From assembly GCA_036172245.1 (NCBI GenBank), contig JAYWIR010000107.1, forward strand, positions 62,001-126,000: a DNA stretch of 64,000 nt. The letters run 5' to 3'. This DNA comes from Raillietiella orientalis (taxonomy: Eukaryota). Made by a program: the position numbers and the translations under genes. Below, in pieces: positions 1 to 64,000 of the stretch. The stretch's first letter is position 1, and the number at the start of each line of letters is the position of its first letter. The notes under the pieces were generated by a model, which had not been told where the DNA came from, ran no database searches, and saw nothing but the letters and a program-made list of their open reading frames with translations.

Positions 1-1
1 C

Positions 2-1027
2 GAGTGCCACTTGTGCGGGGAAAAGGGACACGTCCGTCGTGTGTGCCCTAAACGCCCCACCCCGGTGCCACCTGCTGCCAAAAAGGCACAGGCGAAAAAG
101 ATGAATAAGGTCGAAAGACCTCATCGCGAGAATGGCCGGCCCCAGCAGCCTTCTCCTCCTCCTCGAACCCAGGCGGCGGCGGAAAAAACCGCGAAAGACG
201 CGGGCAAGGAAGAAGGATGGACGCTCGTAAAGGCCAGAAAAGAACCCAAAAAGGGTTCGCAAGAGAAGGCGGAGAAAAAGACGGTCGCGAAGGCGAAAAA
301 ACCTGGTCCGCGATCTAAAACTCTCCGCGAGTGCTCGGTAGCACTGGAGCGCATCAGCGTTCCCGAGGCTGCCACCCGGGGCGACGAGCCTCTTCTCGCC
401 GTTTCCGCCGCGCCCGACGTTCGCGACGGCGAACCCTCTGTTTGCACAGAGGGTGAAACGCGCGACGCGCTCGCCACCGGCGAGGACGCCGCCTTCGCGA
501 AGGCGGCGGAGGAGCTCGCGGCCACGCTGGCTGAGCGTGAGAACCCCTCGCGCAAGGCCGTGCGAAGGCCGGCTCCAGTAAAGAATGCCCCCGCAGGTGA
601 GTTAGAACTGGGGGCCGGAAGTACATCCTCCTCCTCGGAAGCACCCCCCCGGAAGACGGGACGCAAGTCCCAAAAGCCGAGGAAGCGCCTCCCCTCCACG
701 AACGAGGAGGAGAAGCAGGAAGTCGCCGGCAGCGAGGGAATCCCGGAGGGAGAGCTCCCTCGCGCGGAAGCGGTCGAGCAGGACACCCCCATGGAGGAGG
801 GTGAGCAGGGGGGCGAAATCCCCCCTGCCGTCGCGGACCCTGAGGAGCCCACCCCTATGGAGGAGGGCCAGCAGGTAGGCGCGACCCCACCTGAGGGTGA
901 ACCGCCCGACGCGCCGTCACCGATGGAAGAGGGTGACCAGGTGCTAGAGGCACCTGTCCCTCCTCCTCCACCTAGCGTCCCGCCCCAACAGGTGGCGGAC
1001 GCCGCACAGCCGATTTTCCAGGAATAA
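2..1027 (+). CDS. A1 ORF1 (gag-like nucleic-acid-binding protein), C-terminal part
   Basis: Open frame starting CHLCGEKGHVRRVC (CX2CX4HX4C), followed by a Lys-rich then acidic/Pro-rich low-complexity tail with three PMEEG repeats. Confidence 0.85.
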   Translation, partial: ECHLCGEKGHVRRVCPKRPTPVPPAAKKAQAKKMNKVERPHRENGRPQQPSPPPRTQAAAEKTAKDAGKEEGWTLVKARKEPKKGSQEKAEKKTVAKAKKPGPRSKTLRECSVALERISVPEAATRGDEPLLAVSAAPDVRDGEPSVCTEGETRDALATGEDAAFAKAAEELAATLAERENPSRKAVRRPAPVKNAPAGELELGAGSTSSSSEAPPRKTGRKSQKPRKRLPSTNEEEKQEVAGSEGIPEGELPRAEAVEQDTPMEEGEQGGEIPPAVADPEEPTPMEEGQQVGATPPEGEPPDAPSPMEEGDQVLEAPVPPPPPSVPPQQVADAAQPIFQE

Positions 1028-4000
1028 CACCTGGGCTCGCCTGTCGCCATCGAAACCGCGTGGTTAGTTGGAACGTCAACGGGCTGCGCGACGACGGCAA
1101 CAGACGAGATACGGCCGACACCCTGCGTGACTTCGACCTGGCCCTGCTGCAGGAGATCCACGTGATCACCTCGGCAGACGTCCAGGAGATCGAGGCGATC
1201 GCGGGGGGTCGACTGTATTGGCGATGCGGCGCCCGCAACACCTGCGGGGTCGCGTTCTTCGTCAAGCCGGCCATCGACGCTGCCGTGAAGGGCGTACGCT
1301 TTGATGACGACGGTCGGGTCGGTCAGCTGATTCTCAGCTGCTCCGACTCGATCGAATTGATCGTCACGAACGTGTACGCCCCGAGCGGAAAAGGGGGATA
1401 CAGCGACCGTACCAGGCTGCTGGAAACCCTGAAACGCGATTGGCTGGCAGACACGAATGTGCGGAAGGCACACCTGATAGCTGGAGTCTTCAATCTCCGT
1501 CTGCTGTCAGGTGAGCCCGAAGCACCAGAACGCACGGCCAACGAGTTGTGCGCTGCCATGCGCACGCGCAACTTGTTGGCAGACGCGGAGGGAATGGACC
1601 GCAGCATCGACCACTTCTTCCTGGATGTCGACCTGTGCTCGCGGGTCGGCAAACGGGGAAAAGTTGCGTCGACGCTGTCGGACCATTCCAGGATCATCGC
1701 CGAGGTTTGCCCGCGCGACAAAGGACCCCCGTCCAGGGCGTGGCGGCTGCCTGGGGACTGGACGCGGCTCTCAGGTGCGAAAGAACGCCTTCGCGAATTC
1801 CTGAGAGGCGTCACCCTCCGCAGTCTCCAAGACTGGGACCTCTTCAAGGCCTCGGTCCGCGAGTTCTGCGAGGAGTTTCCCCTGCAGCGCCTGCCCCCCG
1901 GATTCGGGGAGGGGGCTCGGAACCAGCGGGCTTATCTACAGGCCCGCCGGTACGAGAGGACCCCGAATGTCCGTCGCCTCGCGGAATATCGAGCCGGGGC
2001 TTAACGCCAAGCCTGGCAATCCGGGTCGGCCAGCTTGCTGGACGACCAGGGCCGGGAGCGATCCGCCCCACCCGCGATCAGGCACCTCGTGCGACGTTAT
2101 TACTCCTCCCTCTACGCTAGGGCACCCCCAGAGCGGAACGCCTCGCGGCTCCTGCTCCCGGATGGAGCCCCGGCAATAGGGGAGGAGGAGAAGATCAGCC
2201 TCGACAAGCCTTTTTCTACCGGTGAAATTCTTGCCGGTATTAAAAGGCTCAGGAGGCGAAAGGCGCCAGGGGAGGACGGCCTGCCTGCGGAATTCTTTGA
2301 ATGTTTCGCGGCAGAGCTAGCACTCCTGGTGCTTCAGTTGACCGGGCTGATCCCCGACGAAGGCGACGTTCCCGCCTCGTTTCGGTCAGCCCGTGTGAGG
2401 CTCCTCCCGGAGGGAGGAGACCTGAGATCCTTGGGCAATTGGCGTCCGATCACAATCGTGAATACGGATGCCAAACTGATCGCTGGACTGTGGGCTTCGC
2501 GTCTAGGACAGGTGGCAGACTCCATAATTAGCCCGGAGCAGACGTACGCTGTTCCCGGGCGAAGTATGGATGCCAACCTGTTCTTCGCGAGCACATGGTT
2601 CCATGTGCAGCGCTGCCTGAACGACACAGGGGGAAAGATTGGCAACCCCACTTTGGGACCGCCAGCTGGGCTGGGAATGGATACCCGGGCTGGGAAGGGA
2701 GCCCTAGCGATCGCGGTCGATCTCCACAAGGCGTTCGACTGCGTAGACCAGGAGCTACTGTTGGAGCTCCTGGGTCGCATGGGCTTCCCACCCTCCCTTC
2801 TCTCCTACCTGCGCTCATGCTGGCGCAATGCCATTGTCAACATCGTCTTTTCCAGCCAACAGGTGTACGGCGTGCCGGTGCGGCGGGGCATACGGCAGGG
2901 CGATAGCCTTCGTCCCCTTCTCTTCAGCACCTACTTTGAGTTGGTGCTGAGAGCGTACAGGGTGACTTTGGCTGCCCTGCCCAGCTCGTGCCCCGGCACG
3001 CCCGCCGTTGCAGCATACGCCGACGATCTTCAGCTCATGTTGCCCATGTCCGCCCGGCAGCCGCAGTCGAGGATTTCTTCGACCTGCTAAGTCGTGGGAC
3101 TGGACTGCGGGTAAACAAGGCGAAGTCGTCGGTCGTACCGGTGGGTGCGACGTGGGTCGGACGGCCTTACTGGATCCGCTTGGGGATCCCCACGGCCAGG
3201 TACCTGAAGTACCTGGGTTTCCCGTTGGGGGACTTCTGCCTCGCAGAAGCCTGGTCAGGTCGTCTCCAGAAGGTAGAGTTGGCAATCGGCCCGTTCCTGG
3301 AAGGCAAGTTCCTTCTGCCGGAACGGGCCGCGGTGTGGAACGCCTTCGCGGCTCCCATCCTCCGCCCCTGCTTTTTGTGTGCCCCGTCCCCCGTGACATT
3401 AAAAAGAGGACAAAAGACCTACTCCGCATCGCCCTCTGGGGCAGCCTGGATGATTTATGTGCTCCTCGTCGGGACGGCGGTCTCGGCCTCCTGACGCTGG
3501 AGCGCCTGGAAATACAGCTGCGATGGCGCACCCTCGCCATCGCAGCAAAGTCATGGAGCACCCCTTGGTGCGTTCCGGCCCGAATCCTCGCCAGCCGTGT
3601 GTCCAGGACGCAAGGACTCGCGTCGTACCTTCTGTTCTCCGGCAGGAAGATGAGAAGATGCGGCCTTCTTCTTGGGCGCATGGAAGCCCTGGTCAGAGAC
3701 AACGGCTGGACGGTATGCAGCCCCACCAACTCCTCCGCCTGGCTGGAGGAATCCGTTGCGACGTAGGCGAAGCTGAACCTCGAGACTTCCCCTGACTGGA
3801 ACCGCCGGCGATTCGGCCCCAACGCCTGCTGCACACTGCGGACTATTCTGGAGTGTCCCGCCAGGAGCACGTGGGCGGAGACTACCCCCCTAGCTTCGAC
3901 CCTGCCCTTCCTACGAAGGGCTTTCACGAGCGGCCGCAAGCCAAAGTGGCAAGTCTCCTGCCGAATCGCAGGCAAGGAAAAGAAGATGAGCGGTTGGACC

Positions 4001-4603
4001 ATGGGAGAACTGGCAGATGCCACGACCCCGAGTGCCCTCCCGCGTGGACTTCGTCGATGGGGCGAGCTGCTCGGCATCCCGACGGATGACCTGAAGTGGC
4101 CCCCAATATTAATAGGATCCAGGCTTCTCCCCCTGAAGTGGCAAGAGTCGGCGCTGCTGCTGTTGCACTGGGGTGTACCCTGCAACGCGCGCCGCTTCCA
4201 CTGGACGCGGGGGAGTGTAAGGCCTGAGTGTGCCAGGTGTGGGAAGCGGGAATCGCTCCCCCACCTACTAGTTGACTGTGCTGCCCTCCGACCCCTGTGG
4301 GAACGGTTCGCGACGACCTTCGGGCTCCCAATGGGCAGCGCGCCCAGAGACGTTCTTCGGCCCCTCTTCGTGCGGGACGCCCTGCAGCCCGCCGCAGCCC
4401 TCGCAGCCCTCTGCTGCATCCAAGGCATCGCGGCGGCATGGAGCGACATTCGCGACGAAGGAGTGGATGCCAACGTGAGGGATGTCATCCCGTATGCGGT
4501 CTGCTTCATGCGGAGAGCAGCGAGATGGCCCCATCTGGGAAACATGAAGATGGACCTAGAGGGCATCCTGCGAAGGATGGACCCTCCTCTAAGTAGAACG
4601 TGA
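1027..4603 (+). pseudogene. A1 ORF2 (APE endonuclease-reverse transcriptase-zinc finger), disrupted
   Basis: APE motifs SWNVNG, LLQE, NVYAP, AG[V]FN, IDH, SDH; RT motifs WRPIT, DLHKAFD, GIRQGD, AYADD; ZnF CARC..HLLVDC. Stops at 2002 and 3764 plus frameshifts. Confidence 0.93.
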
Positions 4604-4837
4604 TACCTTCCCCTCCCACCAAACTCTTTTTGTTTTCCTTGATTTTTATTTTTAATTTTGTTTTGATCCCCATCCCCCTCCACTGCCTAGGAGCGTCACG
4701 CTGGGCTGCGTCCCGGCGTCCCTGCAGGTCCGGTGTTGTGTGGCCGTTAGTGGGGCCTTGTACCACGTTTTCTTCTGGAGTTTTATACAATAAACGCCCC
4801 GGGCGTACCCGGGTGGAAACCTCAACTCCCGCAAGTC

Positions 4838-5230
4838 GGCGACGCAGGGGGAACTGGTCGCAGAACTCCTGGACCGAGCGCTAGGTCCCAATCCTTGAGA
4901 TTACAAAAGGTGACACCTCTCAAGAATTCGCGAAGGTGTCCCCTCGCACGTGAGAGTCGCCTTCAGTGCCCAAGCAGTCGCCACGCCCTGGATGAAGGGC
5001 CCTTGTCGCGCAGGCACACCTCGAATATCAACCGGAAATGGTAAGACAGATCCTAAGAAACTTTCCTCCGTCTGAACAACCGTGAGCACAGGTAAACGAC
5101 CAAGAAGACGTCGATGCAGCAGACCATTTCCGAGAGATCTTCTAACAAGTTACGCGTACGCAAGGCAGCGCCCAACTCGTTAGCCGTCAGTTTCAATGCG
5201 TGTGGTTCACCTGATAGGCGGAGATTGAAG
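4838..5230 (-). mobile_element. Family A copy A2, distal part of the inverted 5' segment (C-half of APE to FPLRR)
   Basis: Minus strand reads FNLRLSGEP..ANEL..RTRNLL..EFCDQFPLRR, homologous to A1 1490-1890. Continues the A2 APE that is broken at 17837. Confidence 0.8.
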
Positions 5231-7431
5231 TTCATCACCCGGTCACGCCGGGGCGTTTATTAATAATAATAAACTGGTCAGGAACAATGTCCCTAACCAA
5301 CAGAACAACAAGGAACATAAAAAAATCACCGGCACGCAGGCCTGATAAACAAACCGCTCGCAGCGTGGGAGGAATGAGGGGAAACAAACAAAAATCAAAA
5401 ACTGTAGGGAAGGGGAACGGGTTTTTGGTTAGGCTCCGTACTCACGGGGATTATAACGACGAGCACCTGAAATGTTCCGGAGCCTATGGGGACGCGGGTA
5501 TAAAAAGAAAATACAAAATTAGTTTATGGAGGGTAGGGCAATGATCACCGGGCTGGCCGCTGCTGAGCGTGTGTAAATCGGCGGTGTATTGCGGCGAGAT
5601 TCCTTTTTGTCTCCTCTGTCAAATGAGGCCAACTAGCGGATGCTCCCATGTGGAAGGATGCTTTGCTGATTACCTCTTGATGCTGTCCGTTGATTACCAA
5701 CGCCTGGCGGACGGGAACTATCGCGCGTATTCAAGCGATGGTTGCAATCCTTGCGCTTAGGGACAGCCCGCTGGGCGTGCAGGATTGTCGCAGCAAGTCT
5801 CTTGCAGTGCCCAAGGGATGCACTAGTGCTGTTGCCAGCAAACGCTACAATCCATGTAGGATACCGCAGTCTAGAAGTAGGTGCAGGATCGACTCCGTCG
5901 ACCCGCAGCGAACCCAGTTCGCAGATGGAACTCCCCCGGAGTCTTGATGCCAACGCTCGTTACACCGAAAACCACAGTGAACTAAAAGCAGCACAAATTT
6001 TTGCCAAGCAAAAGGGAGCAGCGAACTGTCTACACACTGTAAAGAAACTACAGGTTCTTCTGGGGTGACAGCAAATTCTTGTGCCTACCTGAGGAGTCCC
6101 TTTGAAGTACAACGAGGAGTGGCGCGTCCGCCAAATCAATAGTCCTCCAGGCTCCGAGAAGTTTTCTTTTCGCCGCTATCGTGCAGGAAACCTACAACCT
6201 TGTTGGTTGGCAACTCTCGTTTCTTCCCCTAAAGGCAGACAGCGCTGCGGCGAGAGTCGAGGAAGCTAAGGTAGAAAAGTTCACCTCGTCCTGCACCAAT
6301 TCTTGCAAAGATCGCGGATGAAGACGGCGCAGTGCGCGAAGATCTTCAGAGCGCTTTCCTTGGAACACTGCATAGGATTCAACAAGCTCCTGCCGCCAAG
6401 CTTTGAAGTTCATTGGGCGGCAGGAGATCCACGAGTGAACTTCCAGAAGTGCGGTCAACTGCCGCAATGGAAACCCGAAATCCCGCTTTCTGTATTGGGT
6501 GCCCGGCAAAAGTGAGAGAAATCCTCCGCTGCCGGCGCATCTCGGAAGAAGAATGCGTGCTGGCACACACAGGGGGGATGTCCATAGCTGGGCACACAGT
6601 GCCAGCATTCGGAAGTGCACCTGCAGTCCGATTTGCTCCATTGTCAGGATACCCAAACCAGCATCCCGACGTGGAGAAACCAAATCTTTAAGGCGGATCC
6701 TGGATCTCGCCGGACAACAGAGAGAGTTCCTTAGCAGGCGTTTAGCCCGCTGTTTGGCCGCATAGGGTGGGTCCAAAACAAGAAACAGGGGACGGAGGAG
6801 GGTGGCAGCAAAAGTGTTCCAAATAGTCGCCCGTTCCTGCAAGGTAAACTTGCCGTTGAAGAACGGGCTGATCGCCAACACTGCTTCCTGAAGACAGTCC
6901 GCCTACGCTTCGGCTGCGCCGAAAGCGCTCAACCGAACGCCAAGGTACGTGAAGTACCCGCTTGTGAGGATCCCCAGGCAGAAACAGTCGGACTGCCCCT
7001 CCCACGACGTACCCACAGGGACGATCACGCTCTTCTCTCTGTTCACGCTCATGCCTGCTCCCCGACGAATCAGGTCGAGGAAATCCTCGACACTGGACGC
7101 CGGGGTGGACATGGGGAGCAGAAGAAGCAGGTCAGCAGCGTAGTCGGCCACGGCAGGCGTACCCGGGTAGGAGCTTCGCAAGTAAGAGAGCGTCAGCCTG
7201 TATGCTCCAAGCACCAACACAAAAAAGGTGCTGAAGAGTAAGGGTCTTAAGGTTTCACCTTGTCGAATGCCTATGCCCACGGGAACACCGTAGACGCGGC
7301 ATCCGCTGAAAGAAATACAGGTAAGCGCGTGGCGTCCGCTAGCGCGCAAGTAAAGCAGGAGATGCGCCGGAAATCCAATTGGTTCCAGAAGCTACAAGAA
7401 AAGCTTCTGGTTTACGCAGTCGACCGCCTTG
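5231..7431 (-). mobile_element. Family C copy C1, 3' segment (RT C-half to 3' end)
   Basis: GIRQGE, YAAD and post-RT homology; 3' signal AATAAA-CGC-CCCGG-CGTGA-CCGGG-TGA on minus strand at 5261-5235. Confidence 0.88.
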
Positions 7432-7444
7432 CGTGCTCCAGGGT

Positions 7445-7455
7445 GGACGTGTTTT
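7445..7455 (+). promoter_or_regulatory. Conserved 5'-terminal motif GGACGTGTTTT (candidate internal promoter element)
   Basis: Recurs within ~15 nt of the 5' end in families A, B, C and D, whose UTRs are otherwise dissimilar. Confidence 0.55.
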
Positions 7456-7527
7456 CTCGGTGCTCCTCGTGCCAGGAAGTCTCCCCCAGTGCAAGCGTCG
7501 TTTGGTTCGGCGGTCGATCAGGCAGCG

Positions 7528-9203
7528 ATGCCTGACGCGACCTCCAGAGATGGCCAGGGGGCAGCGGCAACGCCTCGCCCAGAGGCGATAAAGAGGCAAA
7601 GGGCGGCGGCAACGTCGCCCCCAGACGCGATGGAGGTGGGGGCATCCGCCCCTACAGAATCGGTCCCCGCTGCAGCGCGGGCGTGGAGCGCCGTTGTGTC
7701 GACGCCATCGCCTGCAGCCGCGATGGAATTGTCGGCCTATGAAGAGGAGGGGTACAACCCCTCATTGTTCTACAAGGTAGGCAATTTATATTCTTTGGAG
7801 AACGCGCGCAACTTCTCGGAGGGCATGCGCGCTCTCGATGTTAAAGAGGAGGAGCTGAGCGCTATGACCACCCGCAGCGAGGATCAGTACGTTGAGGTCA
7901 TCTGAAACAAGCAGAGCTGGCCCAACCACTGCTAAAAACCCCCGTGGTGATAAGGACGCGCAGGCTCCTCCCTATTACGGCGGACCGCAGCATGGTGGTT
8001 CACCTGTTGGGTGTCACCGCTCGGATGCGCAAGGAACAGGTTCGCGCCGCGTTGGAGGAATACGGAACGGTCAACGCGCAGTGCAAAAAAGGTAGTACTT
8101 TCAAGGACTACACGGAGCTGCAACACGGTTTCACTGCTGCGCGCGTGACCGTTCGCGAGGGCTGCACTCTTCCCCACAAACTGGTGGTCGAAGGCGAAAA
8201 CGTCGACCTCTGGTATGTGGGGAAGCCGAAATACTGTGGCTTCTGCAATACGTCGGGCCACCTCAAAAAGAGGTGTCCCAATGTGCAGTGCCAAGTATGC
8301 GGCACAATGGGCCACACGAGGGAGGTGTGCCCAAAAGCAGCAGTGCGGGTGGTTTCCAAGAGAAACCTTAAAAAACGCGCCCGGCTTCTGCAGAAAAGGC
8401 TAGCGGCGAAAGCTGCCGCGAAGGCTGTGCAACCCGCGTTCAAGACCCAGGCCGCACCCGAGATCCCGGTGACCGACGCCGAAAAAGTTGAGGGAGCCGG
8501 CCAAGAGACTGGGTGGCAAGTGGCAACGGCCAAAAAATCAAAGAACGAGAGGAGGATGGAAAAGAAAATCGCCTACCAACAGAAGAAGAAAGAGCAGGGT
8601 AGCGATATAATTAAAGAGTGCAACGTCGTTGTCGAACGCGTTCTCGATGTTGCCGAACGCTGCCGGAAAGAACTCGCCGCTACCGACGACCTCCCCTCTG
8701 TTGACACTGTCAACAGCGAGGGGAGCGAGCCGGCGGCGGCGTCCGTCATCGACACCACTATCGATGACGTAGCCTTCGCGCGAGCCGCGGAAGAGCTGGC
8801 AGCCTCGTTGCAGCCAGAACCCTCCAAGGCTGGCAAGAAGGCCGTATGGCGTCCGGCCTCCCCTCAGGAGTCCTCATCTTCCGACCCCGAGGTGGAGGCC
8901 GGAAGCGCAGCCTCCGTTTCCACGGCACCGCGCAAGAAGGCCGGACGTAAGTCCACAAAGTCAAGGAAGCTCGTCTCCCCCGTCGAAGGGGAAGAGTTGG
9001 CTTCCGAAAGCGAGGGTGCCATGAGCGTGGGAAACTCTCGGGACACGTCGCCCGAGAGACTCCCACGCGCGGACACGGAGGGGATGAAGGGTGTGGAGGC
9101 CGAACAGGTTCCTCAGGTGCCTGAGAAGGCCTTAACACCCATGGACATCCCACCCGCCTCGCAAGAGGAGGGCTCCCCCACACCTTAATCTTCCGAGCAG
9201 TAA
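7528..9203 (+). pseudogene. B1 ORF1 (two zinc knuckles), frameshifted
   Basis: AYEEEGYNPSLFYKV motif; CGFCNTSGHLKKRC and CQVCGTMGHTREVC; frameshift near 7905. Confidence 0.88.
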
Positions 9204-12786: not shown

Positions 12787-12973
12787 TCCCTTCCCTTATC
12801 CTCCCAACTTTTCTTTTCTTTTTTGTTTTGTTTTTTGTTTTTCCCCTTTCCCCCTGCTGCCTTGGTGGACCGTACCGGTCTGCGAACCGGTGAATCGGCA
12901 GACACTGTGTTTCTTCGTGCGTAACTGGAGCAATGGTCCAGCCACCGCACATCTTTGTAAAAGTTTATTTTAC

Positions 12974-13004
12974 AATAAACGCCCCGGCGAAATCCGGGTG
13001 AAAA
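12974..13004 (+). terminator. Representative 3' signal: AATAAA + 5-bp stem-loop + short A tail
   Basis: AATAAA CGC CCCGG CGAAAT CCGGG TGAAAA; 13 other copies or variants mark every LINE 3' end in the window. Confidence 0.85.
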
Positions 13005-18706: not shown

Positions 18707-18708
<2 letters not shown>

Positions 18709-18741
<33 letters not shown>

Positions 18742-51823: not shown

Positions 51824-52095
51824 ACTCTCGTAGAGACACTGTGGAAGTCTTCCTTCTTTGCGGATGCAGAGGGTAAACTAGTGGAACAAACGCAGGAAGG
51901 CATGCAGGTACCGCTGATAGTGAGTGATGGGTATGCTGTCAGGGCCCGATGCCACGTCCTTGCGTAGTTGACCAAACGCAGTCTTCACCTCGTCTTCGGA
52001 GAATTCCTCCTCCAGTCTGTTCCGCTGGAGATCGTCGGTCGTCTTCTCGAGGTAGCTCAGAAAGGCCTGTTGACTAGAGTGACAGAGATGTGCAT
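51824..52095 (-). mobile_element. Internal fragment of a second family G copy (G2)
   Basis: FSEDEVKTAFGQLRKDVASGPDSIPITHYQRYLH matches G1 42905-43170. Confidence 0.88.
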
Positions 52096-52097
52096 CT

Positions 52098-54989
52098 TCC
52101 CTGCTCGATGAAAAAGGCCTGGAATGCGCGGCACCAGTCAGTATTCGCCGCATAATAAAAACTTATTACTCCTCGCTATACGCGGAAGCACCAACGGCAA
52201 TTATCTTTTCGGAGATACTGCTTTCCCAGGTTGCTGCCGTAGTTAGCGAAGAGTAACGCTCACGTCTCGACGAGTCCTTCACGGAGGAGGAAATTTCCTC
52301 CGCAATAGCGAAGCTCAAGAGACGAAAAGCGCCTGGCGAGGATGTGCTGCCTGCGTAGTTTGATCAGTGCTTCCCAAGGGAGCTCGTCCCCCTGGTGCAT
52401 CGTCTCTCGTCGCTGATGAGGGTTCCGGGGAATGTCCCCAACTCCTTCCGTTCCGCGAGGGTGCGTCTCCTTCCGAAAGGTAAAGACGCACGCCATTTAA
52501 ACAACTGGCGTCCGGTCACTTTGGTGAACTCGGACGTCAAGTTGTTCTCCAAGATGTGGGTTGCGCGCCTAGGTAGAATCGCGCCGTCCTTGGTGAGCCT
52601 GGAGCAGACTTACGCTGCTCCCGGGTGATCCATTGACGCGAACCTCCTGTTTGCACGCACCTGGATGCAGCTGCAGGAGCGCGTAGCGCAGCAAAGTCGA
52701 TCCGTGACAAATGCCACTGCTAAAGGCACACGTTATCGACAGAAGCGGCAAGAGGGTACGCCGGGTGCCTTGGCGGTAGCTGTCGACCTCCACAAAACGT
52801 TCGATTGCGTGTACCAAGCGCTCCTATTGGAGCTTTTGGAACGCCTGTGTCTCCCGGCTCAACTCCTCAAGTACGTGCGTGCATGCTGGCGCCACGCGCT
52901 AACTTGCATTTGTTTTAGTGGCTGCCACGTGCACGGTATTCCCGTGCGCATGGGCATCAGGCAGGGTGACAGCTTAATCCCGTTGCTCTTCATCATCTTC
53001 TTTGAGTTGGTGCTGAAAGCGTACAGGCTGACGCTGGAATACCTGCCTAGCTCTTGCCTGGGAACGCCTGTTGTGACTGCCTATGCAGATGACCTGCTTC
53101 TTCTGCTCCCCATGTCCACCCCGGCGTCCAGTGTCGAAGATTTCTTCGATCTGATTCGTCGGGGAGCGGGCGTGGGCGTGAACAGAGAGAAGAGCGTGGT
53201 CGTTCCTGTGGGTGCGTGGTGGGAGGGGCAGTACGACTGGATCCGCCTGGGGATCCCCACGGCGGGGTACTTCAAGTACCTTTGCGTTCCGTTGGGCGAC
53301 CTCGGCGCTGCCGAGGCGTGGTCGGACTGCCTTCATGAGGCCGAGTTGGCCGCCAGCCCGTTCATGAACGGCAAGTTCACCTTGCCGGAACGGGAGGCTA
53401 TTTGGAACACCTTCGTGGCCCCCCTCCTCCGGCCGCTCTTTTTTGTCTTGAACATCCCCTATGCGGCCAAAGAGCGGGTAAAACGCCGGCTAAGGAACAC
53501 TGTCTGGGGTCCGGCGCGATCCAGGATCCGCCTGAAAGACCTCATTGCTTTACGTCGTGATGCTGGGCTTGGCATCTTGATGGAGAGTATCGGACTGGAA
53601 GTGCAGTTCAGGATGCTCGCACTTTGTGCCCAGCTATGTACTTCCCTCCTATGTGCGCCTGCGCGCATCCTCCTGAGGAGGTGTGCAGGCAGTGAAGGAT
53701 TACTTTCTTTAGTGCCTGGCTTGCGTCACAGGAAACAGAAATTTGGCTATCCTTTGAGATAAATCGCCACCCTATTGGAAGAAAGTACGTGGATTACCTG
53801 CCGCCCAATGAACTATAATGCTTGGAAGCAGGAATCCATTGATTCGCGGGCTGCATTCTTAGGAATGAGCCGTGAAGATCTTTACCCCCTGCGTCGATTT
53901 CAGCCTTGGTCACTCCAAGATGTCATGCAGGACGAGGTGAAGCTTTCCTTCTTGTCCGCCACCCCCCTTGACGAAGCACTGTCTGCCCTCGAGGCTCGAG
54001 ATGACAGTAGCCAGCCGGCAAGGTGGAAGTTCTCCAGCACCATTGCAGGAAGAACAAAACCAGTTGGCGAATGGACCACGAGCGAGCTTGCGGATGCCGC
54101 CACTCCTCGTGCTACACCAAAGGGGTTTCTTTGGTAAGGAGAAGCTCTTGGTGTTGTTCCCGAAGAAGTTATAGTCCCTCCCTGGTGTTTGGACGGTTCG
54201 GTGTTTCCCCTTGCATGGAAGCAAGGCGTTTTGCTTTTCTTGCACTAAGGATTGCGCTACAACGAGCGGCGTTATTGAGTTTCCGGTGGGGGGACTTCTC
54301 CCTACTGTGACCGGTGCGGAGCGACGGAGTCGTTCCAGCACCTTCTTATGGACTGCGGTGCCCTCCAGGAACTGTGGAGGAGGCTAGCAGCAGCTCTCCC
54401 GTCACCAGGAAACACCGCTCGAGAAGTGTTGCGACGGTTTTTCTAGACACAAGGACTTTCGATGGCTGCGACGATTTCCACTGTTGGTTGCATCCGCGCC
54501 ATCGTCACGGTCCGAAACGTGCTGGAGAATACTGGACAGCAATGTTGTGTCACCAGGAAGACAGCTGACTTCATCAGGTCGGCAGCTGCGTGGCGAGACT
54601 TATATGAAGACACAACGGAGGAGCTAACCGGTATCCATCGCCGGATCAGCAAGGGCTTAGAAAGACGAAATCGGTGATGCGCCCTCATTGTATTTTTGAT
54701 TGGTTTTTTTGTTCTCGCGTCCTTTTCCCTGTACGCTCCGCAGTCCTTTTGGTGCTAGAACTTCTGAGTTTCCCGGTAAGTGCGGAGCAACACCAATGTT
54801 CCCTGGGCCCACTCCTCTCATTTACAGTTTTTTTTTTTTTTGGCTCCCTCAGTCGTCAATGTTCTTCCGTTTTCCTAGCCTGCGTGCCAGGGGTGAAACT
54901 CCGCTGCATGTTTTCATAGTCGAGAGCTGGAAACAATTGTTTCCAGCTCGTTTATATCAATAAACGTCCCAACGTGATCGGGTGAAAAA
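52098..54989 (+). mobile_element. Family C-like copy C3 (linker to 3' end)
   Basis: DLHKTFD, GIRQGD, AYADD; protein similar to C1; terminus AATAAA-CGT-CCCAA-CGTGA-TCGGG-TGAAAAA. Confidence 0.9.
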
Positions 54990-57900
54990 TTTCAACGTTC
55001 GCCTGAAACCAGATGGGCAGAATCCCGAGCGTGACCTGGTCAACGAGGTGTGCATGCCGGTGCACACCTGTAATTTGTTGGCCAGTGCACCGTGGATGGA
55101 AGACAGCATTGACCACGTGTTTGTTGACGAGCACCTGTGCCCTCGCGTGGGCAGGTGCGGCAAGTTATTGTGCGAGCTGTCCGACCATCGCAGGATAGTC
55201 CTCCAGATCCATCCGCGCGACAGGGGCCTCCTTTCGTCAGCGTGGCGTCTCCCAGGGGACTGACTAAAGCTTTCGGACGCGGCGGAACATCTCCGCACGT
55301 TAGTACGGAGCTTCAGGCTGCGGACACTCCAGGATTGGGACCGCTTCAAGCGTTCGGTACAGGAGTTCTGCGACCAATTTCCTCTGCACTGCCTAACTAC
55401 GGGTTTTAGGACCGAAGTCCGTAACGAACTAGCCTATCTGCAGGCCCGTCATTACGCCACAACCCCCGGCATCCGCAGGCTGGCGGAATACAGAGCGAGA
55501 GCCGATAGGCAAGCCTGGCAGTCCGGAACGGCCAGTGTGCTGGACGATCAGGGCCAGGAGCACTCGGCACCCGCCCAAATTTGCAACCTGCTGCGGAGTT
55601 ACTACTACTCCCTATATGCCAAAGCACCTCCAAAGAGGAACGTCTTACGACTCCTACTTCCGGAAGGCGCTTCAGCGATCGAAGAGGAGGAGAGAAAGAC
55701 CCTCGACGAGCCTTTCACAATGGACGAGATCCTCTCGGCCATCGGAAAGCTCAAGAGGCGCAAGGCTCCAGCGGAGGACAACCTGCCCACGGAGTTTTAC
55801 CAAACTTTCGCGGCTGAGCTTACCCTCCTGGTACAGCAACTCACCTTGCTGATACGCGAGACAGGTGACGTTCCCGCCTCGTTTCGTTCGGCATAGGTAC
55901 GGCTCCTCCCTAAGGGAGGAGATCTGAGGAGCATGAACAGCTGGCGTCCCATCACAATAGTGAATGCGGACGCCAAGTTGCTGGCTAAGGTTTGGGCAGA
56001 GCGTCAGGGACGGGTTGCCAACATCTTCATAAGCACGGGACAGACATATGCTGTTCCCGGGCGAAGCATGGAGGCGAACCTGTTCCACGCTTTTACTTGG
56101 CTAGAGCTCCAACAAGAAAGGAGCTTGGTGCGCAGCCAGAATTCTGGTGCGTGCGCCGGCAAGCGGTCGGATGGTCGGGTGAAGGAGGGAGCCCTTGCAG
56201 TCGCAGTCGACTTGCGGAAAGCATTCGATTGCGTCGACGAGAATCTTCTTCTGGAGCTTCTGGAAAGCTTGGGCTTCCCGGCCTCATTAGTAGCATATCT
56301 GCGCTCCTGCTGGCGCGACGCGCTAATCAACGTTACTTTCAGCATGCAGACCGTGCACGGCATGCCAGTGCGACTTGTGATCGGGCAGGGAGACAGCCTG
56401 AGCCCCTTGCTCTTCAGTACCTACTTTGAGTTGGTACTGAGAGCGTACAGGGGAACTCTGGCGCACCTGTTGCACGACTGTGCCGGTGCGCCGGCCGTTT
56501 CAGCGCACGCGGACGACCTTCTGCTTCTGCTCCCTATGTCCACCCCGGCTTTGGTGGTCGAGGAGTTCTTCGATCTGCTGCATCCGGGAACCGGACTTAC
56601 GGTGAACACGGCGAAGGCGTCCGTGTTGCCATTTGGTGCGGCGTGGGCAGGGCAGCAGTACTGGTTCCGTTTGGGGATCACCACGGTGAGGTACTTCAAG
56701 TACCTTGGTGTGCCGTTCCGGGACTGCTCCCCTGCGGAAGCGTGGTTCTGCTGCCTCCAAGAAGTAGAGACGGCGATCGGTCCGTTCCGAGGCGGCAGGT
56801 ATTTCCTGCCTAAACGGGCCGCGGTGTGGAACACGTTCGAGGCTGGTCTCCTCCGCCCCTGCTTTTTGTTTGCCTACGCGCAGAGTGATTTAAAAAGTGT
56901 ACAAAGGACCTCCTTCGTATCGCCCTTTGGGGTAACGGGAGGGTCCGAGTCTGCTGAGAGGACTTGTGCGCTCCTCGTCTGGACGGTGGTGTGGGCCTCC
57001 TGACGCTGGAGCGGCTTTAGCTTCAGCTTCAGTTCCGAATTTCGGCACTTGTTCCAGAGTTGTGGTGTACCTGTTGGTGCGTCCCTGCACGTCTCCTCCA
57101 GCAAGCGACCGGCAAGACGGGACTGACGTCGTTTCTTGCACTCCGTCGCCGCGTCCACCGATGCGGACTCCAGCTACAAAGGGTGGCTGCTCTGTACCGG
57201 AAAAACCCAGGATTGGTCACCTGTCGCCCTTTGGACGGTAGTGCCTGGTTGCAAGGAACCGTTCGAACGTGGGGACAGTTCGGCATGCAACGCTCCCAAC
57301 AGGAACGAAGGTTCCTGTTTGGGGGTTACAGAAGTTGCACGCTCCGTGAGATCCTGGAGAATCCAAAGAAGAGAGCGCTGGCAGGAAGAACACCCTTCGC
57401 TGCTGCGCTGCTCTCCCTGGTGGAATATCTGGACAGCGATGTTGCAGCAAAGTGGGAGGTTACAGTAACAATCTCCGGGAAGGACAAGAAGATAGGAGAG
57501 TGGAAGACGGGTCAGCTAACTGACGCTGCCACCCCGAGTACGTCTTCCCATGGACTTCTTTGCTGGGGCGCGCTGCTCGACGTTCCCATTGAACGTCGAG
57601 CAACGTTCATTAGTATCCTCCGGTACTAATGAACACCTCCACTCTCCCCTTAAAATGGCAGGAGTCGACTCTCCTGTTGCAGCACTGGGGACTCCCCTGC
57701 AACGCATGCCGACACCCCTGGACCTGGGAAGCGGTGGACCCCAACTGCGTCAGGTGTGGGGAACGGGAGTCCCTCCCTCACATGCTAGTGTATTGTGTTG
57801 CCCTTCGGCCCCTTTGGTTTCGCTCCGCCGCGGCCATAGGCATCCCCTGTGGCAACCCTAGGGACGTCCCTAAAGCCCTCTTCGTTGCCGACGCCCTTCG

Positions 57901-58328
57901 GCCAGCGCCCTCGTTAGCAGCTCTGTGCTGCCTTCGCTGGATCGTCTCCGCCTGGAGCAAGGCTACGGGAGGACCACACGAGCAGGGTGCCATCCAGGCA
58001 GCCTCCCAGTTGCTGAGGAGGGCGTCGCGATGGCCCTACCTGGATTCAAACATGCAGCAAGAGCTTGCCGGCATCCTGCAAAGGATGCAACGGCCCCACC
58101 AGCAACTGTGATCCCTTTCTTTACCCTCCCAACTTTTCTTTTCTTTTTTGTTTTGTTTTTTGTTTTTCCTCCTTGCCCCTGCTGCTGTGGTGGACCGTAG
58201 CGGTCTGCGAACCGGTGACCCGGCAGGCTCTGTGTTTCCACGTCCGTGGCTGGAGCAATGGTCCAGCCACTGCACGTCTTTGTAAATGTTTATTAAACAA
58301 TAAACTCCCGGCAAAATCCGGGTGAAAA
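54990..58328 (+). mobile_element. Family B copy B4 (from APE FNVRL to 3' end)
   Basis: Homologous to B1 9669-13004; terminus AATAAA-CT-CCCGG-CAAAAT-CCGGG-TGAAAA. Confidence 0.92.
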
Positions 58329-59240
58329 TCGAACGCTTTGTGGAAGTCGACTGCGACCGCCAAGGCACCTGACGTTCCCTCCTGCCTTCTGCGCCTGTTC
58401 TTTTGGCCTGCGGCTGCGACTTTCGCCTCAGCCAGGCTTTGCTGCGCCACGACTTATTAAAGCTGCATTCAGGTGCGCGCGAAAAGGATGTTCGCCTCCA
58501 TGTATCGTCCGGAAACCGTGTAGGTTTGTTCCAGGCTTACCACAGATTCCGCGATACTTCCTTACCGCGAGACCCATGGCTTGAAAAACAACTTGACGTC
58601 TGAGTTCACCAAGGTGATCGGACGCCAGTTGTTAAGTTGGCGGTTGTCTCCGCCTTTCGGCAGGACACACACCTTCGCTGAGCGGAAGGAATCCGAGTCG
58701 TTCTCGAATTCCCTGTTCAGTGTCGCGAGTCTCAGCATCAAGGGGATGAGCTCCACTGCAAAGCACTGATAAAACTCTGCGGGGAGTCCATCCTCGCCCG
58801 CGCCTTTGGTCTCTTCAGCCCAGCAATGGCGGACGAGAACTCATCTGCCGTGAAGGGCTCGTTTAGACGTTCGCGTTCCTCCTTGCCGACGACAGGAGCA
58901 TCCTTTGACAGGAGTATCTCAGGGAAAATGTCCTCCGTCGGGGATTCCGAGTACTGCAACAAGTAGTAGCGTCTCACAATGTGGCTTTCTCTGTCTGGGT
59001 CCGGACATTTCTGGCCCTTGTCGTCCAACAGGCATGCTGTTCCGGACTGCAAGACCTGACACTGGGCCCTAGCCTTGTACTCCGCGATACTCCTGACATC
59101 CGTGCGTCTAGAAAACGTGCGAGACTGCAGAAACTCTCTGCTGTTGGCTACGCCTTCTCCAAAACCGCGTGGAAGCCATTGCAAGAAGAATTCGCAGCAG
59201 AATTTGCGCACAGATCTTCTGAGATCGTCCCAGTCCGCGA
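58329..59240 (-). mobile_element. Family C fragment C4 (linker to RT AVDFHKAF)
   Basis: Homologous to 13005-13915. Confidence 0.88.
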
Positions 59241-59987
59241 GGGAGAGCACACGGGTGTATGTTTTGCTTCCGAGCGTTAGTGGTTTCATTTTTCATATTT
59301 TTTTTGGTGTTCTAGTGGATTTGTTGGTGGCTAGGCAGCAATGGCTGAGACCATAACCAGTGATAAGAAGCAGGCGACGTCTATTTCGTCTCCTGAATCA
59401 ATGGATGTGGAGGCAACCGCCCCAACAAAAGCGTCTTTTTCGTTAGGGAGAAGCTGGCGTTCCGAGGCTGCGGCGCCATCGCCGGTAGCTGCGGCCAAGT
59501 TAAAGGCCTACCTGGAGGAGGGGTACAATCCCTCGTTTCTCTATAAGGTAGACAATTTCTACTCCTTTAAGAGTGCACGCGCTTTCTCGAAAGCGATGCA
59601 CTCTCTCGAAATTCCACAGGAGCAGCTCTTGGCGATGACCATCAGGAGCGGTGGACAGTACGTGGAAGTGATTTGCAAAAAAGCAATTCTTGCCCAACGT
59701 CTGCTCCGTACACCTGCTTCTTTGGGGAAACGCCGGCTCCTCCCCATCACGGAGGATGGATCCATCGTGATCCACCTCCTCGGAATCAACTTTCGGATGG
59801 CCAAAGAGGCTGTCCGAAATAAATTATCAAAATTTGACACGCTGCACGCGCTGTGCAAAAAGCCAACTTTGTTTTGGGAATATGATCTTCTCATATTGGC
59901 TTCCGCGCGAATCACGGTCCGCGAGGGTTGCTCCTTAACAAACAAGCTAGAGGTCAACGGAGAGCCCGTTTACATTTGGTATGTTGG
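59241..59987 (+). mobile_element. LINE 5' part (I), B-related ORF1 N-half from ATG 59341
   Basis: AYLEEGYNPSFLYKV ... ARITVREG ... IWYVG, cut by E2. Confidence 0.85.
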
Positions 59988-62793
59988 TTTTTCACCCGAA
60001 TAAGCCAGGGCTTTTATTATAAAATTTTGACATTACAAAATTTTGTAATAAAGTCTATGTTGTTAAAATTTTTCTTTATACGACGTCGAAAGTTCAGTTC
60101 AGAAGTTCAGTAGCACTTGTCCTTACCGACCCGGAGGCCGATAAGGTCCTTCACTGGCGCCGGGACGGGAAAAAAAAAAGAAAACAAAAACAAAAAAAGA
60201 AAAACGTCTGGAAGGCAATGTTTTTGGGGAGGAAGAGAGAGGGAGGGGATCACGGTGCGCCGTGAGCAGGCCTTTGCATCCGGTTTCGGATGCGAACAAG
60301 TTCTGGCAAATGTTTTTGAAGTCGGCGCCAACGGCACGCTTTCTCCAAGGAGATCGCTGCCCAGTGAATGGCATTCCGGCTGCTCCTTACTCTCCTAGAC
60401 GCGCTTTACTTCTCCAGGATACCGCGTATGCAGCACAGCACTGCTACGCTTCCGGAGGCTGGCAAGCCGTTTCGCGTTAGAAGGCGTCTGAATATATTTT
60501 TCAGGTCACCCTCCGGAATGTTGAGGATCGACGAGAGTCTGTCCCACATTTCGTGGAGGGCAACACACTCCAGAATCAAGTAAGGGAAGGTCTCCCTTTC
60601 GCCGCACTCTGCACAACTAGCATCCACATTCCCCGATGTCCAGCGAGACAGGCGTGCTCTGCTTAAAAGTCCCCAGTGGAGCAGAAGCAACGCCGTCTCC
60701 TGCCACTGCAGGGGAAGGGTGCCGTTGTCCCATCACGCTGGGGGCCACTTCACCTCCTCCGGAGGTATACCTTGTAGCGCGCCCCAGTGTAAAAGTCCGT
60801 TCGGCGGGACACTCGGGGTACTAGCGTCCGCTAGTTCCCTCGGCGTCCACGCCTTCAGTGATTTTTTCATGCATCCGATGAGACAGGACACTTCCCACGA
60901 TGCCTGTTGGTGGCTGTCACGAACTTCTCTGAGGGAGGGCAGCACTGGGGCAAGGGAAGCAAGGAAGCACACAGAAGTTTCCGTGGGTTGGAAACGATCT
61001 CCTAGAGTAGCTGACCAGCGTGCCTCCCTCTGCGGAGGCAGCAGAAGTCCTCATCGCTGGTGCCATTGATCTTCGCCCATGCGGAAGCGGACTCCTGAAG
61101 CCAGGTAGTCCAGTCCGCTGGGATGCAGGAGATCCAAACGTTGTCTCTCATCAGGGCAACCAAGTCCCGCAGCTGATAACCACAATGGTTCAGGCTGCGT
61201 TCGTTGACTACAAGGATTGAAGTCAATCCGAAGCAGCCGGTTGCCCTGTAAGCAAGAAGTCTTGCCGGTGCACACCAGGGTGCTGTCCAAAACTTTGCCA
61301 CAAGAGCAAGTTTTCTGAATTGGGGCTGTCGCTCCATGCGCTCCAACGTCAGGAGACCAAGTCCACCGTCCCAGCGTGGAGCGCACAAGTCTTTGAGCCG
61401 GAAGCGGGCCTCCGGTTGCCACAGAGGGCTTTCCGTATAAGGCCCCTATTCCGTGTCCTAATTTGGTGAGGGGTAGGGCACACAAAAAGTAGAAGGCGAA
61501 GGAGGGGGCCAGCGAAAGCGTTCCATACCGTGGCACGATCCTGCAAGTGAAACTTGCCGTCTCGGAACGGGCCGATCGCCAGCTCCACTTTTCGTAGACG
61601 GTCGGACCAGGCTTCTGTAGAGCAGAAGTCCCCCAACGGAACGCCAAGGTACTTGATGTACCTTCCCGTGGGGATCCCCAAGCGGATCCAGTCCGACCGT
61701 CCGGCCCTCGTCGAGTCGGTGAGAAGCAACGACGACTTCGTCCTGTTAACCTGGAGGCCTGTCCCACGGTATAGCAACTCGAAGAAATCCTCGAGCGACG
61801 ATGCCGGGGTGGATTCGAGAAGCAGGAGCAGAAGATCGTCGGCATAGGCCGACACGGCAGGCGTGCCGGGACACGAGCTCGGCAGAGTTGCCAAAGTCTC
61901 CCTGTATGCTCTCAGCACCCACTAAAAGTAGATGCTGAAGAGCAGGGGGTTGAGGCTGTCTCACTGCCGGATGCCAAGACGAAGCGCCACGCCGAACACG
62001 TGCCAGCTGTTGAAATTAATATTGATAAACGCGAAGCGCCAGCAGGAGCGCAGGTAGGCAAGGAAGACGGCCGGAAATTCCAAGCGTTCCAGGAGCTCTA
62101 GAAGGAGCTCCTGGTCGACGCAGTCGAAAGCTTTACGCAAATCGACTGCGATCGCAAGGGCTCCAGGCGCCGCATCTTCTTCCCGGCTTCCCTCCCCCCT
62201 GTCAATTAAGAGTCCAGGACTTTCCCGACGTAGCTGCGCCTCGCGTTATTGCAACTGTTAGATTGTGCTGGCGAGGAACAGGTTGGTCTCCATGGTTCGT
62301 CCGGGAACAGCGTATGTCTGTTCCGGACTGACCACGGAGTCCGCTACCCGTCCCAGGCGCTCAGTCAACAGTTTGGCGAGCAACTTTGCGTCCGCATTCA
62401 CTACAGTGAAGAGACGCCAGTTGCCAACGTTGCGCAAGTCTCCTTTCTTAGGAAGGAGACGTACTCTAGCTGAACGGAACGAGTTGGGGACATCCCCACG
62501 TTCACGGATAAGCATACATAGTTTTAGCACCAGGGGGGCCAGCTCTGCCGCGAAGTGTTGGTAGAAGTCAGCTGGCAGACCGTCTTCCCCTGGTGCTTTG
62601 TTTTATCCAATTTAGTAATGGCGGAGATTATCTCCGCCATCGTGAATTCTTGGAGGAAGATGTTTATTTCTTCCTCCCTCAACGCAGGAGCACCCTCTGG
62701 CAGCAGGCACTGCGCAGAGGAGCGCTCTGGTGGCCTCAGCGCGTAAAGGGAGGAATAAAAATCCCGCAGAATGCGGCAAACCTGCGCCGGTGC
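59988..62793 (-). mobile_element. Family E copy E2 (linker to 3' end)
   Basis: DLRKAFD, AYADD, ZnF; terminus AATAAA-AGC-CCTGG-CTTAT-TCGGG-TGAAAAA. Confidence 0.92.
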
Positions 62794-64000
62794 CGCACGC
62801 GTTTTTGGTCAGCACCCGTGAGCGAAGCCAAAACTAGGTCTTGTGTGGATTGGAAGTGCGGCCGTTGGAAGGCAGAAATGCCTAAAGACGCCGCAGTACC
62901 TGCGACGGGAGACGTGAGGCCCACGTCTCCCCAGCCTATGGAGGTGGGGTCATGCCCCACCAGAAAATCAGCCCCCGCCACCCCGGAGAGGGCGTGGAAC
63001 AAGGTGGCCGCGGCGGCTCCGCCGGACGTGGTCACCGAAGTGCAGGCCTACATAAAGGAGGGCTACAAACCAGCCCTCCTTTACAAGGTAGGAAATCTTT
63101 ATTCACCGCTTACAACGCGGAAATTTGGAAACGCCATCCGTAGGATGGGAATCTCTGACGAGGAGATTCTTTGCTTCTCGATTCGGAGCGGCAGGCAGTT
63201 CGCGGAGCTGATCTGCAAAGATGCAGCGCTCACACACAAACTGCTCTACACGCCCGTTTCGTTCGAAGGGCGGAATCTCCTCCCACACACGGTGGATCAC
63301 TCTATGGTGATCCACGTCACGGATACAACGGTGCGGATGACCGATGAAGCCATCCGCACTGAAATCAACAATTTCGCGGAGATATACGCGATGTGGTCAA
63401 AGCCCAACGCCTTTACTTATTGAGGCGCATTCAGTGGGCGAGTTGCCGCGCGCGTAACTCTCCGCGAAAACAAAGTACTTCCCCACGAGCTTAAAGTCAA
63501 CGACGAGCTCGTCGACGTCTGGTACGTGAAGAAGAAAAAATACTGTGGGCTGTGCAACACATTCGGGCATCTTAAAAAAAGATGCCCGGATGCCACATGC
63601 GCAACCTGCGGTGCGAAGGGCCACACTAGTGCTGTGTGCCCGAAAAACGCCGCGACAACGCCTTCAGCCCCTTCGAGAAATAAGGGGAAGAAGGCAGAAT
63701 TTACAGCAAAGAGCGATGGAAAGCCGACTTCAGAAGAAGTCGTGCACAAGGAGCAGGAGCCTCAAAAGGAGACTTCTGATCCAAATGCCGACGAGGAAGG
63801 CTGGAAAATCGCTTCTGGCAAAAAACCCAAACAAATTGAAAACAAAACAAAAAAAATCCCCAGAAAAAACTCAAAAAATCAGAACGCGAGCGTTCCGAAA
63901 TAGCCCGCGGTCGGCAAACCAAAAATTCCGCCGCGCGACTTCATAAAGGAATGCCGCGTTACAATCGAGCGCGTTTCGTCGATCGAGCGTCGATCGGCGA
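62794..64000 (+). mobile_element. LINE 5' part (J), ORF1 with two zinc knuckles, runs off the window
   Basis: AYIKEGYKPALLYKV; CGLCNTFGHLKKRC; CATCGAKGHTSAVC. Confidence 0.88.

Follow-up and report, generated by a model that had tools for sequence, protein, structure and literature searches.

How does a stretch of animal DNA come to consist almost entirely of long interspersed nuclear elements (LINEs) that lie within one another? We addressed this question for a sequence of 64,000 bases from Raillietiella orientalis (JAYWIR010000107.1, positions 62,001-126,000 of the forward strand), in the following called the window. It contains about 25 dead copies and fragments of L1-group LINEs. At least six lineages are represented, and the nesting reaches a depth of five levels. 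Most likely, the window represents an accretion island of target-specific L1-group LINEs, whose targets are short sequences in the open reading frame (ORF) 2 and, less precisely, in the ORF1 of sibling LINEs. Elements and lineages are referred to by the handles given in Table 1. Since el1 starts at base 1, its coordinates are identical to those of the window and were used as the common coordinate system for all insertion sites.

Insertion sites in the ORF2 of sibling LINEs

The borders between neighboring elements can be read to the single base because both termini are conserved. Twelve 3' ends (positions 4819, 5231, 13004, 15974, 23888, 26571, 33702, 36070, 50803, 54989, 58328, and 59986) share a common tail, which consists of an invariant AATAAA, followed by CCCGG(N5-7)CCGGG and then TGAAAA, in lineages that differ by up to 35%. 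The full-length 5' ends likewise carry a common motif of the GGACGTGTTTT type. A recognizable 5' end has been kept in nine elements (el4, H, G, J, X, K, el15, P, and Q), and 5' truncation ends were found only at el6, el18, and probably M, the element to which el11 and el12 are assigned below.

Based on these termini, we were able to parse 18 LINE-in-LINE insertions. The original prediction had placed every recognizable insertion inside another LINE and most of them in antisense orientation to the host. The former holds for all 18 LINE events and also for the one insertion of a short interspersed nuclear element (SINE). The latter agrees with a count of 15 antisense events out of 18 (two-sided binomial p = 0.0075, a value to be read with the restriction that the events are not independent draws, the orientation being fixed per lineage and site). 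The three sense events are the insertions of H in G, of M beside N', and of el18 in el19.

Ten of the 18 events fall at four exact sites in ORF2. One of them covers the codons for D-L-H-K-A-F-D of the reverse transcriptase (RT) domain (KAFD site; target-site duplication [TSD] 2727-2738) and has been entered in antisense orientation by four elements, all of which belong to lineage E (el4, el14, el19, and J). Here, the 3' ends of three lineage-E elements adjoin the same nucleotide, each in another host, and two 5' ends of this lineage are found on the other side of the site. The endonuclease codons for G-D-F-N (GDFN site; TSD 1488-1495) received two elements of lineage H, namely H itself and el18, both in sense orientation; two 3' ends and one 5' end are preserved at these junctions. 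Two antisense events, el1 and G, occurred at the linker codons for G-F-G (GFG site; 1903-1909), where the 3' end of el1 and the 5' end of G can be seen. The fourth site (2342-2354) was also used twice in antisense orientation, as documented by the 3' end of K and the 5' end of X. Both ends together with a TSD were observed in four insertions: el4 in H (12 bases), H in G (8 bases), el15 with its attached U4 small nuclear RNA (snRNA) copy in K (13-16 bases), and the SINE in G (11 bases).

This reuse of sites was compared with a chance model, in which positions were drawn at random on a 5.57-kb element with two possible orientations and a tolerance of 15 bases. The 18 events contain nine coincident pairs versus 0.43 expected, and none of 200,000 simulations reached nine, the maximum being seven. 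If the el19/el20 event is dropped as possibly non-independent, six pairs are left, and only 0.17% of the simulations reach even four. An H-type copy with the corresponding borders was also recovered from an independent DNA run (X1): a contig of 3755 bases, about 5% different, has its ends at a flank of the GDFN type and at the KAFD site. Only this one contig was used from run X1; short joints with sides of 23-41 bases and a likeness of 90% were set aside as unreliable. The mutually targeting community of elements that had been proposed for this locus was therefore borne out and can be described more sharply, in that the elements hit fixed nucleotides of each other's ORF2 in fixed orientations, with the choice of site following the lineage.

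These junctions suggest the following mechanism. The endonuclease of each lineage, which is of the apurinic/apyrimidinic endonuclease (APE) type, would nick a certain sequence, and this in a single orientation. By target-primed reverse transcription, a new copy would then be placed at the nick and a TSD of 7-16 bases generated, and each new copy would represent fresh targets for the other lineages. Because fresh targets arise with every copy, the island would grow by nesting and stay nearly free of other sequence, and the fixed, mostly antisense orientation of the sites would result in an alternation of strands. Fellow LINEs would, we infer, also offer a safe haven for the insertion. The KAFD codons of lineage E itself (el4, approximately 10897-10908; el14; el19) read CGN-AAA (R-K). 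The three KAFD hosts that have retained the codons read CAC-AA(A/G), and the junction in el9 shows CAA-AAG. This difference hints at self-immunity of the attacker, with counts (0/3 versus 4/12) that are not significant.

Lineages, independence of events, and alternative explanations

A maximum-likelihood tree was calculated from the DNA of 14 copies, covering the region from the RT to the C terminus. In this tree, the KAFD users el4, el14, and el19 form one group (100/100). The GDFN users H and el18 form another (100/100), which lies within a larger group together with K and el10 (100/100). Moreover, el1 groups with el8 and el9 (95/100) and el6 with el21 (100/100), and el15 appears as a long branch. 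A second set of trees, based on the 5' untranslated region (UTR) with ORF1 and on the start of the endonuclease, joined el4 and J (100/100), el1 and G (100/99), H, K, and X (100/100), as well as N' and the inverted part of M (100/99). The trees thus give at least six well-supported groups, as expected for an array that had been called multi-family.

Could the repeated junctions go back to a few ancestral nested units that were copied by segmental duplication, unequal crossing-over, or gene conversion? One pair of events would fit this explanation. In el4/H and el19/el20, the inserts are 85.7% and the hosts 82.8% identical, and an alignment of 4264 bases (84.9% identity; 9668-13918 versus 54989-59241) runs through the junction of insert and host, so that these two could be one event that was later duplicated. 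Junctions with mismatched flanks, which are described below, show that rearrangements did occur in the window. Elsewhere, however, closely related inserts sit in hosts of different lineages. The inserts el4 and el14 are 81.9% identical, but their hosts H and N' only 66%; el4 and J share 84.8% over 1195 bases, but their hosts H and el9 66.7% over 658 bases and nothing beyond; and at the GDFN site, H and el18 are 72.8% identical, while only 61 bases can be aligned between the hosts G and el19. Insert and host comparisons are incongruent at three of the four KAFD events, and no fewer than three of these events are independent, as their hosts come from different lineages. The extent of the inserts also differs: el4 is a full-length copy, J is interrupted in the ORF1 tail, and the cuts in el14 and el19 lie elsewhere. 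Furthermore, of the two GFG junctions, G is the guest in one and the host in the second, and the two users of the 2342-2354 site, K and X, are different elements. We consider duplication of a few units a very unlikely source of the repeated junctions.

Untargeted insertion into a gene-poor region of low recombination (for example, heterochromatin near a centromere or a trap resembling a piRNA cluster), in which LINE insertions of any kind are tolerated and pile up, would account for the eight of the 18 events that are located at sites used once in the window. It would also agree with insertions in ORF1, ORF2, and near 3' ends, and with the poly(A) SINE, presumably moved by other machinery, which landed here too. 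But such a process explains neither the exact reuse of nucleotides nor the dependence of the site on the lineage and the predominance of antisense events, and the near-total purity of the window, without any LTR (long terminal repeat) element, DNA transposon, or other LINE superfamily in the 280 ORFs scanned (see below), also speaks against it. It appears highly improbable. A different possibility is that the island is a centromere or a dual-strand small-RNA locus and that the LINEs are drawn to chromatin (CenH3 or heterochromatin marks) and not to a DNA sequence. Drosophila centromeres are reportedly formed by islands of retroelements. In the window, LINE sequence is present on both strands and includes long inverted copies, for example el11 versus N' (85.6% identity), and nested LINE-only clusters mark centromeres of green algae in the accounts cited here (PMC8226300, PMC3446292). 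Tethering to chromatin, however, does not predict that hosts from different lineages are hit at the same nucleotide and in one orientation, and we regard it as unlikely to direct the insertions. A role of the island as centromere or small-RNA source can be compatible with sequence-specific targeting.

Some observations also weigh against the sequence-specific targeting of sibling LINEs that we favor. Besides the single-use sites and the possible duplication of the el4/H event mentioned above, these concern ORF1, where five insertions (el6, el21, M, el10, and el15) occurred at five positions. Two of them, el6 and el21, are 93% identical but are located at different places in ORF1, so that lineage D shows no fixed nucleotide. 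In two other cases, only one end is canonical. The 3' end of K lies at position 2354 of el17, but its 5' end (39256) meets el14 at approximately position 1176. Likewise, the 3' end of el18 lies at the expected site in el19, but its 5' end (52092) meets the el15-like fragment S of 268 bases. These mismatched flanks suggest that an extra event took place, either an insertion-associated deletion or a later rearrangement; insertion-associated deletions are known for L1. The element el6 sits at a point where the N-terminal part of the endonuclease is missing from H. No endonuclease homology was detected in 15975-16522, a stretch that represents a low-complexity ORF1 tail, and el6 probably replaced about 0.8 kb of H. 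The contig from run X1 agrees with this, as it carries 797 other bases at the place where el6 sits in H (window positions 14059-15971).

The conservation of the sites is also uneven. We considered that the four sites might be the most conserved stretches of ORF2, but among the copies only the KAFD site ranks high (percentile 0.92), compared to 0.68 for GDFN, 0.54 for GFG, and 0.51 for 2342-2354. Finally, X and N' were considered as a possible single element N. The ORF1 and endonuclease trees assign them to separate groups, as would be expected of two elements but also of a single one whose ORF1 module had been exchanged; in the latter case, two endonuclease lineages would share the 2342-2354 site.

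Element type, composition, and architecture of the island

As judged from their protein sequences, the elements belong to the L1 group of APE-type LINEs. Along the copies, the APE endonuclease, N-terminal in ORF2, precedes the RT. Human LINE-1 ORF2p was the best match among solved structures (E ~1e-12 for both queries, endonuclease and RT). The L1 endonuclease structure matched with E ~1e-5, R2 proteins were weaker, and no R1Bm or TRAS1 chain was found at E <=0.01 in this search. The RT is followed by a putative zf-RVT domain, which scores 25-27 bits and thus below the Pfam cut-off of 27.5. ORF1 consists of an N-terminal domain, two CX2CX4HX4C knuckles that are visible in the translations and match Pfam zf-CCHC below threshold, and a long tail rich in K, S, and E. 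A phmmer search against 1.84 billion representative proteins gave 6599 relatives, only three of them at E <=1e-30. The best relative shows 67% identity (JGI contig), and others are from a turtle and a fish (37-42%). In word-based protein searches, the RT of el15 had relatives of only about 28% identity, and the endonuclease ORF of N' had no match among longer proteins. The conserved 3' terminus may serve as a recognition element for the RT. The term Tx1-like, where we use it, refers to insertion behavior.

According to our annotation, LINEs account for 98.5% of the window. With the el1 ORFs as queries, tblastn detected about 22 ORF1/ORF2 fragments on both strands, spread over the whole window, and most of the leftover stretches were assigned by tblastx to the 5'UTR and ORF1 of further copies. 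No copy in the window is intact, the longest ORF2 piece comprising 453 of about 1200 codons. We scanned all 280 stop-to-stop ORFs of at least 100 amino acids against Pfam in two batches (64 and 216). Matches were obtained for 16 of the 51 longest ORFs, with Exo_endo_phos in four, RVT_1 in ten, and zf-RVT in two, the latter below the curated cut-off, and for one of the 216 ORFs of the last batch. Apart from these three families, only sub-threshold zinc fingers (CCHC knuckle families and one C2H2) were found, which means that the 280 ORFs contain no family foreign to LINEs and include neither a host gene nor any LTR element, DNA transposon, or LINE of another superfamily. TRF reported eight short rows for the window, the longest of 83 bases, and thus no satellite; ARAGORN found no tRNA genes in it, and Rfam gave a single match, the U4 snRNA copy. 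The parts that are not LINE are the SINE (697 bases), the U4 copy (138 bases), and 146 bases without any match. The absence of host genes, satellites, and LTR elements, as stated before on inspection of the letters, is therefore confirmed by Pfam and TRF. The description of the array as pure needs to be amended for one SINE, one U4 copy, and 146 unassigned bases. The G+C content lies at 53-64%, and the sequence contains no N. For the whole window, the observed/expected ratio is 0.97 for CpG and 1.05 for GpC, though the copies differ by 7-35%; the CpG value gives no sign of methylation-type CpG decay.

The features of the window are compiled in Table 1. In the left part, el9 is the outermost host. 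It contains el8, which in turn contains G; within G lie H as well as el1 and the SINE, and H itself took up el4 and el6, which amounts to five levels. A second chain in the left half leads from el9 via J and el10 to X. At the right end, el20 is the host of P, P of el21, and el21 of Q. We also considered el9 and el20 as the halves of one host split by the elements from J to el19, but this was rejected, since el20 is 82.8% identical to H and el9 groups with el1 and el8. Twin priming is a model for 5' inversions in LINE insertions, and el11 and el12 probably represent such an inversion of a single element, M, with a loss of about 184 bases (from 2238 to 2422). The U4 copy joined to el15 points either to a template switch onto U4 RNA or to a lineage tied to U4 genes.

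Table 1. Features of the window. Positions preceded by el1 in the last column are given in the common coordinate system; site names are explained in the text.
Feature	Position	Strand	Description
el1	1..4819	+	Starts inside ORF1; ORF1 to 1024, ORF2 976-4600; 3' junction antisense at G-F-G codons of G
G, part c	4820..5230	-	Homologous to el1 1909 down to 1488, between GFG and GDFN sites
H, 3' part	5231..7430	-	From RT KAFD site to 3' end; 3' junction sense at G-D-F-N codons of G
el4, lineage E	7431..13004	+	Full length, 5574 bases; antisense in H at D-L-H-K-A-F-D; 12-base TSD CAAGGCG(T/G)TCGA
H, middle part	13005..14060	-	Homologous to el1 ~1663-2738
el6, lineage D	14061..15974	+	5'-truncated; 93% identical to el21; antisense in H, ~0.8 kb of H missing there
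H, 5' part	15975..17837	-	5'UTR and ORF1 with two CCHC knuckles; 5' end at GDFN codons of G; 8-base TSD (C/T)TTCAATC
G, part b	17838..18708	-	Endonuclease start and ORF1 end
tRNA-like SINE	18709..19405	-	A29 tail; 11-base TSD CTAAGGGCCGT; sense in ORF1 of G; not LINE
G, 5' part	19406..20962	-	ORF1 and 5'UTR; 5' end adjoins el8, antisense, G-F-G codons
el8	20963..23888	+	Host of G; GFG site to 3' end; 3' junction antisense in el9 at ~el1 4211
el9	23889..25397	-	Outermost host of left nest; homologous to el1 4211 down to 2725; ends at KAFD site
J, lineage E	25398..26570	+	5' part; 84.8% identical to el4; 5' end antisense at KAFD site of el9
el10	26571..29019	-	3' end antisense in ORF1 tail of J; cut by X at ~el1 2354
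X	29020..29900	+	5'UTR and N-terminal part of ORF1; groups with H and K; 5' end antisense at 2342-2354 site of el10
el11 (M-inv)	29901..31137	-	Inverted 5' segment (probably of M), el1 2238 down to 991
No match	31138..31283		146 bases between el11 and el12
el12 (M), direct part	31284..33702	+	el1 2422 to 3' end; adjoins N' in sense
N'	33703..36069	+	ORF1 tail, endonuclease, RT up to KAFD site; 85-87% identical to el11 and el12
el14, lineage E	36070..39255	-	3' junction antisense at KAFD site of N'; right end (~el1 1176) meets 5' end of K
K, 5' part	39256..40617	+	5'UTR and ORF1
el15, divergent lineage	40618..46179	-	Antisense in ORF1 of K; TSD of 13-16 bases GCTCTCGCGAT(C/T)GCTA
U4 snRNA copy	46180..46317	-	Full-length match to model positions 1-138 (Rfam, 76 bits); attached head-to-tail to 5' end of el15, both enclosed by one TSD
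K, remainder	46318..50803	+	ORF1 end, ORF2, 3' end; 3' junction antisense at 2342-2354 site of el17
el17	50804..51822	-	Host fragment; homologous to el1 2354 down to 1342
S	51823..52091	-	~268 bases; 83% identical to el15 at 42906-43173
el18, lineage H	52092..54989	+	3' junction sense at GDFN codons of el19; 5' flank (S) does not match
el19, lineage E	54990..58328	+	GDFN site to 3' end; 3' junction antisense at KAFD site of el20
el20	58329..59244	-	Fragment of a host element; corresponds to el1 2738 down to ~1831; 82.8% identity to H
P	59245..59985	+	5' end and N-terminal part of ORF1; 5' end antisense in el20
el21, lineage D	59986..62805	-	3' end antisense in ORF1 of P, just before first zinc knuckle
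Q	62806..64000	+	5' part with ORF1, runs off the window; antisense in el21 at ~el1 2047

A tRNA-like box B (GGTTCGAAT) is present in the SINE, which is about 690 bases long. Since it ends in poly(A), unlike the surrounding LINEs with their hairpin-plus-short-A tails, it was probably mobilized by another type of LINE. A hairpin at the conserved 3' end of the LINEs was examined as a candidate structure but not retained, with only four predicted pairs, one compensatory pair, and a weak energy. Two long antisense ORFs without a Pfam match were noticed in el1, one of 623 codons (2815-4686, minus strand) and one of 461 codons (121-1506, minus strand). Other copies have no counterpart, and both ORFs probably arose by chance in DNA of 62-64% G+C. 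The ORF1 region of el15 contains two short GC-rich tandem repeats (45748-45923; periods of 36 and 27, with about two to three copies each).

Comparison with known target-specific LINEs and LINE clusters

Target-specific LINEs of the APE type are assigned to the Tx1 and R1 clades in the account used here, which names rRNA genes, small RNA genes, microsatellites, telomeres, and transposons as targets (PMC4640811). Crocodilian Tx1 families are described at fixed positions and in fixed orientations in Mariner, LTR, and Harbinger elements, and some carry U1 or U2 heads (PMC4494074). Examples named for the clade are Tx1 in Tx1D, Tx1-Mar in Mariner-N4_AMi, Tx1-8_Crp and Tx1-4_AMi in LTR retrotransposons, and Keno in U2 genes (PMC4494074, PMC4640811). 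As far as these accounts go, the elements of the window resemble the Tx1 clade in several respects: they are L1-group LINEs of the APE type, they occupy a fixed position and orientation inside other transposable elements, sister families differ in their site, some copies have an snRNA at the 5' end (here U4 on el15), and the specificity is attributed to the endonuclease. They differ in their targets. The Tx1 targets reported there are DNA transposons, LTR elements, small RNA genes, and microsatellites, whereas in the window coding codons of sibling LINEs, including those of catalytic motifs, are hit, and the lineages are both hosts and guests. Our literature searches listed no description of LINEs that target coding motifs of other LINEs. 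Target-specific L1/Tx1-like LINEs are known, and the use of each other's genes as targets would be the new part.

R1/R2-type elements of the rDNA and the telomere and microsatellite specialists of the R1 clade occupy a single exact position within a conserved sequence that is present in many copies, and their 3' junctions are precise. The elements described here follow the same strategy, but their endonuclease and RT match human L1 ORF2p best, and their target is not a host gene. Centromere islands of Drosophila (G2/Jockey-3) are said to be mixed assemblages of transposable elements with satellite flanks. The window resembles them as an arthropod-type island rich in non-LTR elements; it differs by the targeting of fixed coding sites.

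Zepp and ZeppL elements form nested clusters by targeting existing copies, with one cluster per chromosome at putative centromeres, according to the parts of the literature considered here (PMC8226300, PMC3446292, 10.1101/2022.06.16.496473), and the Zepp arrays consist mostly of 3' ends due to 5' truncation (PMC8226300). The original prediction drew an analogy to these elements, and one part of it stands: like Zepp of Coccomyxa and Chlorella and ZeppL-1 of Chlamydomonas, as portrayed there, the elements are LINEs of the L1 type whose insertion into copies already present gives near-pure nested clusters of tens of kilobases (here 18 events and 98.5% LINE). Other features speak against a close analogy. 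Instead of a single family, at least six lineages with different sites are present; nine 5' ends have been kept, unlike in arrays of mostly 3' ends; and fixed nucleotides in coding motifs are used, whereas those accounts name no fixed nucleotide target for Zepp.

It is quite possible, if not quite probable, that the window reveals a guild of sibling L1/Tx1-like elements in an animal genome, in which each endonuclease is aimed at the ORF2 of the others, including the codons of catalytic motifs. Such mutual hyperparasitism alone would build and maintain LINE-only domains, which may form the basis of centromeres or small-RNA clusters. If true, related lineages that target each other's coding sequence would represent a form of ecological arrangement that is new for mobile elements. 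The pool of targets would be self-made and conserved by the elements' own need for working enzymes, and each hit would disable a competitor. This would provide a concrete mechanism, without a need for chromatin tethering, for the origin of near-pure LINE islands such as those associated with the centromeres of green algae and flies. It would also make these lineages a natural panel of related APE endonucleases with differing DNA specificity, useful for understanding how the specificity of L1-type endonucleases changes.

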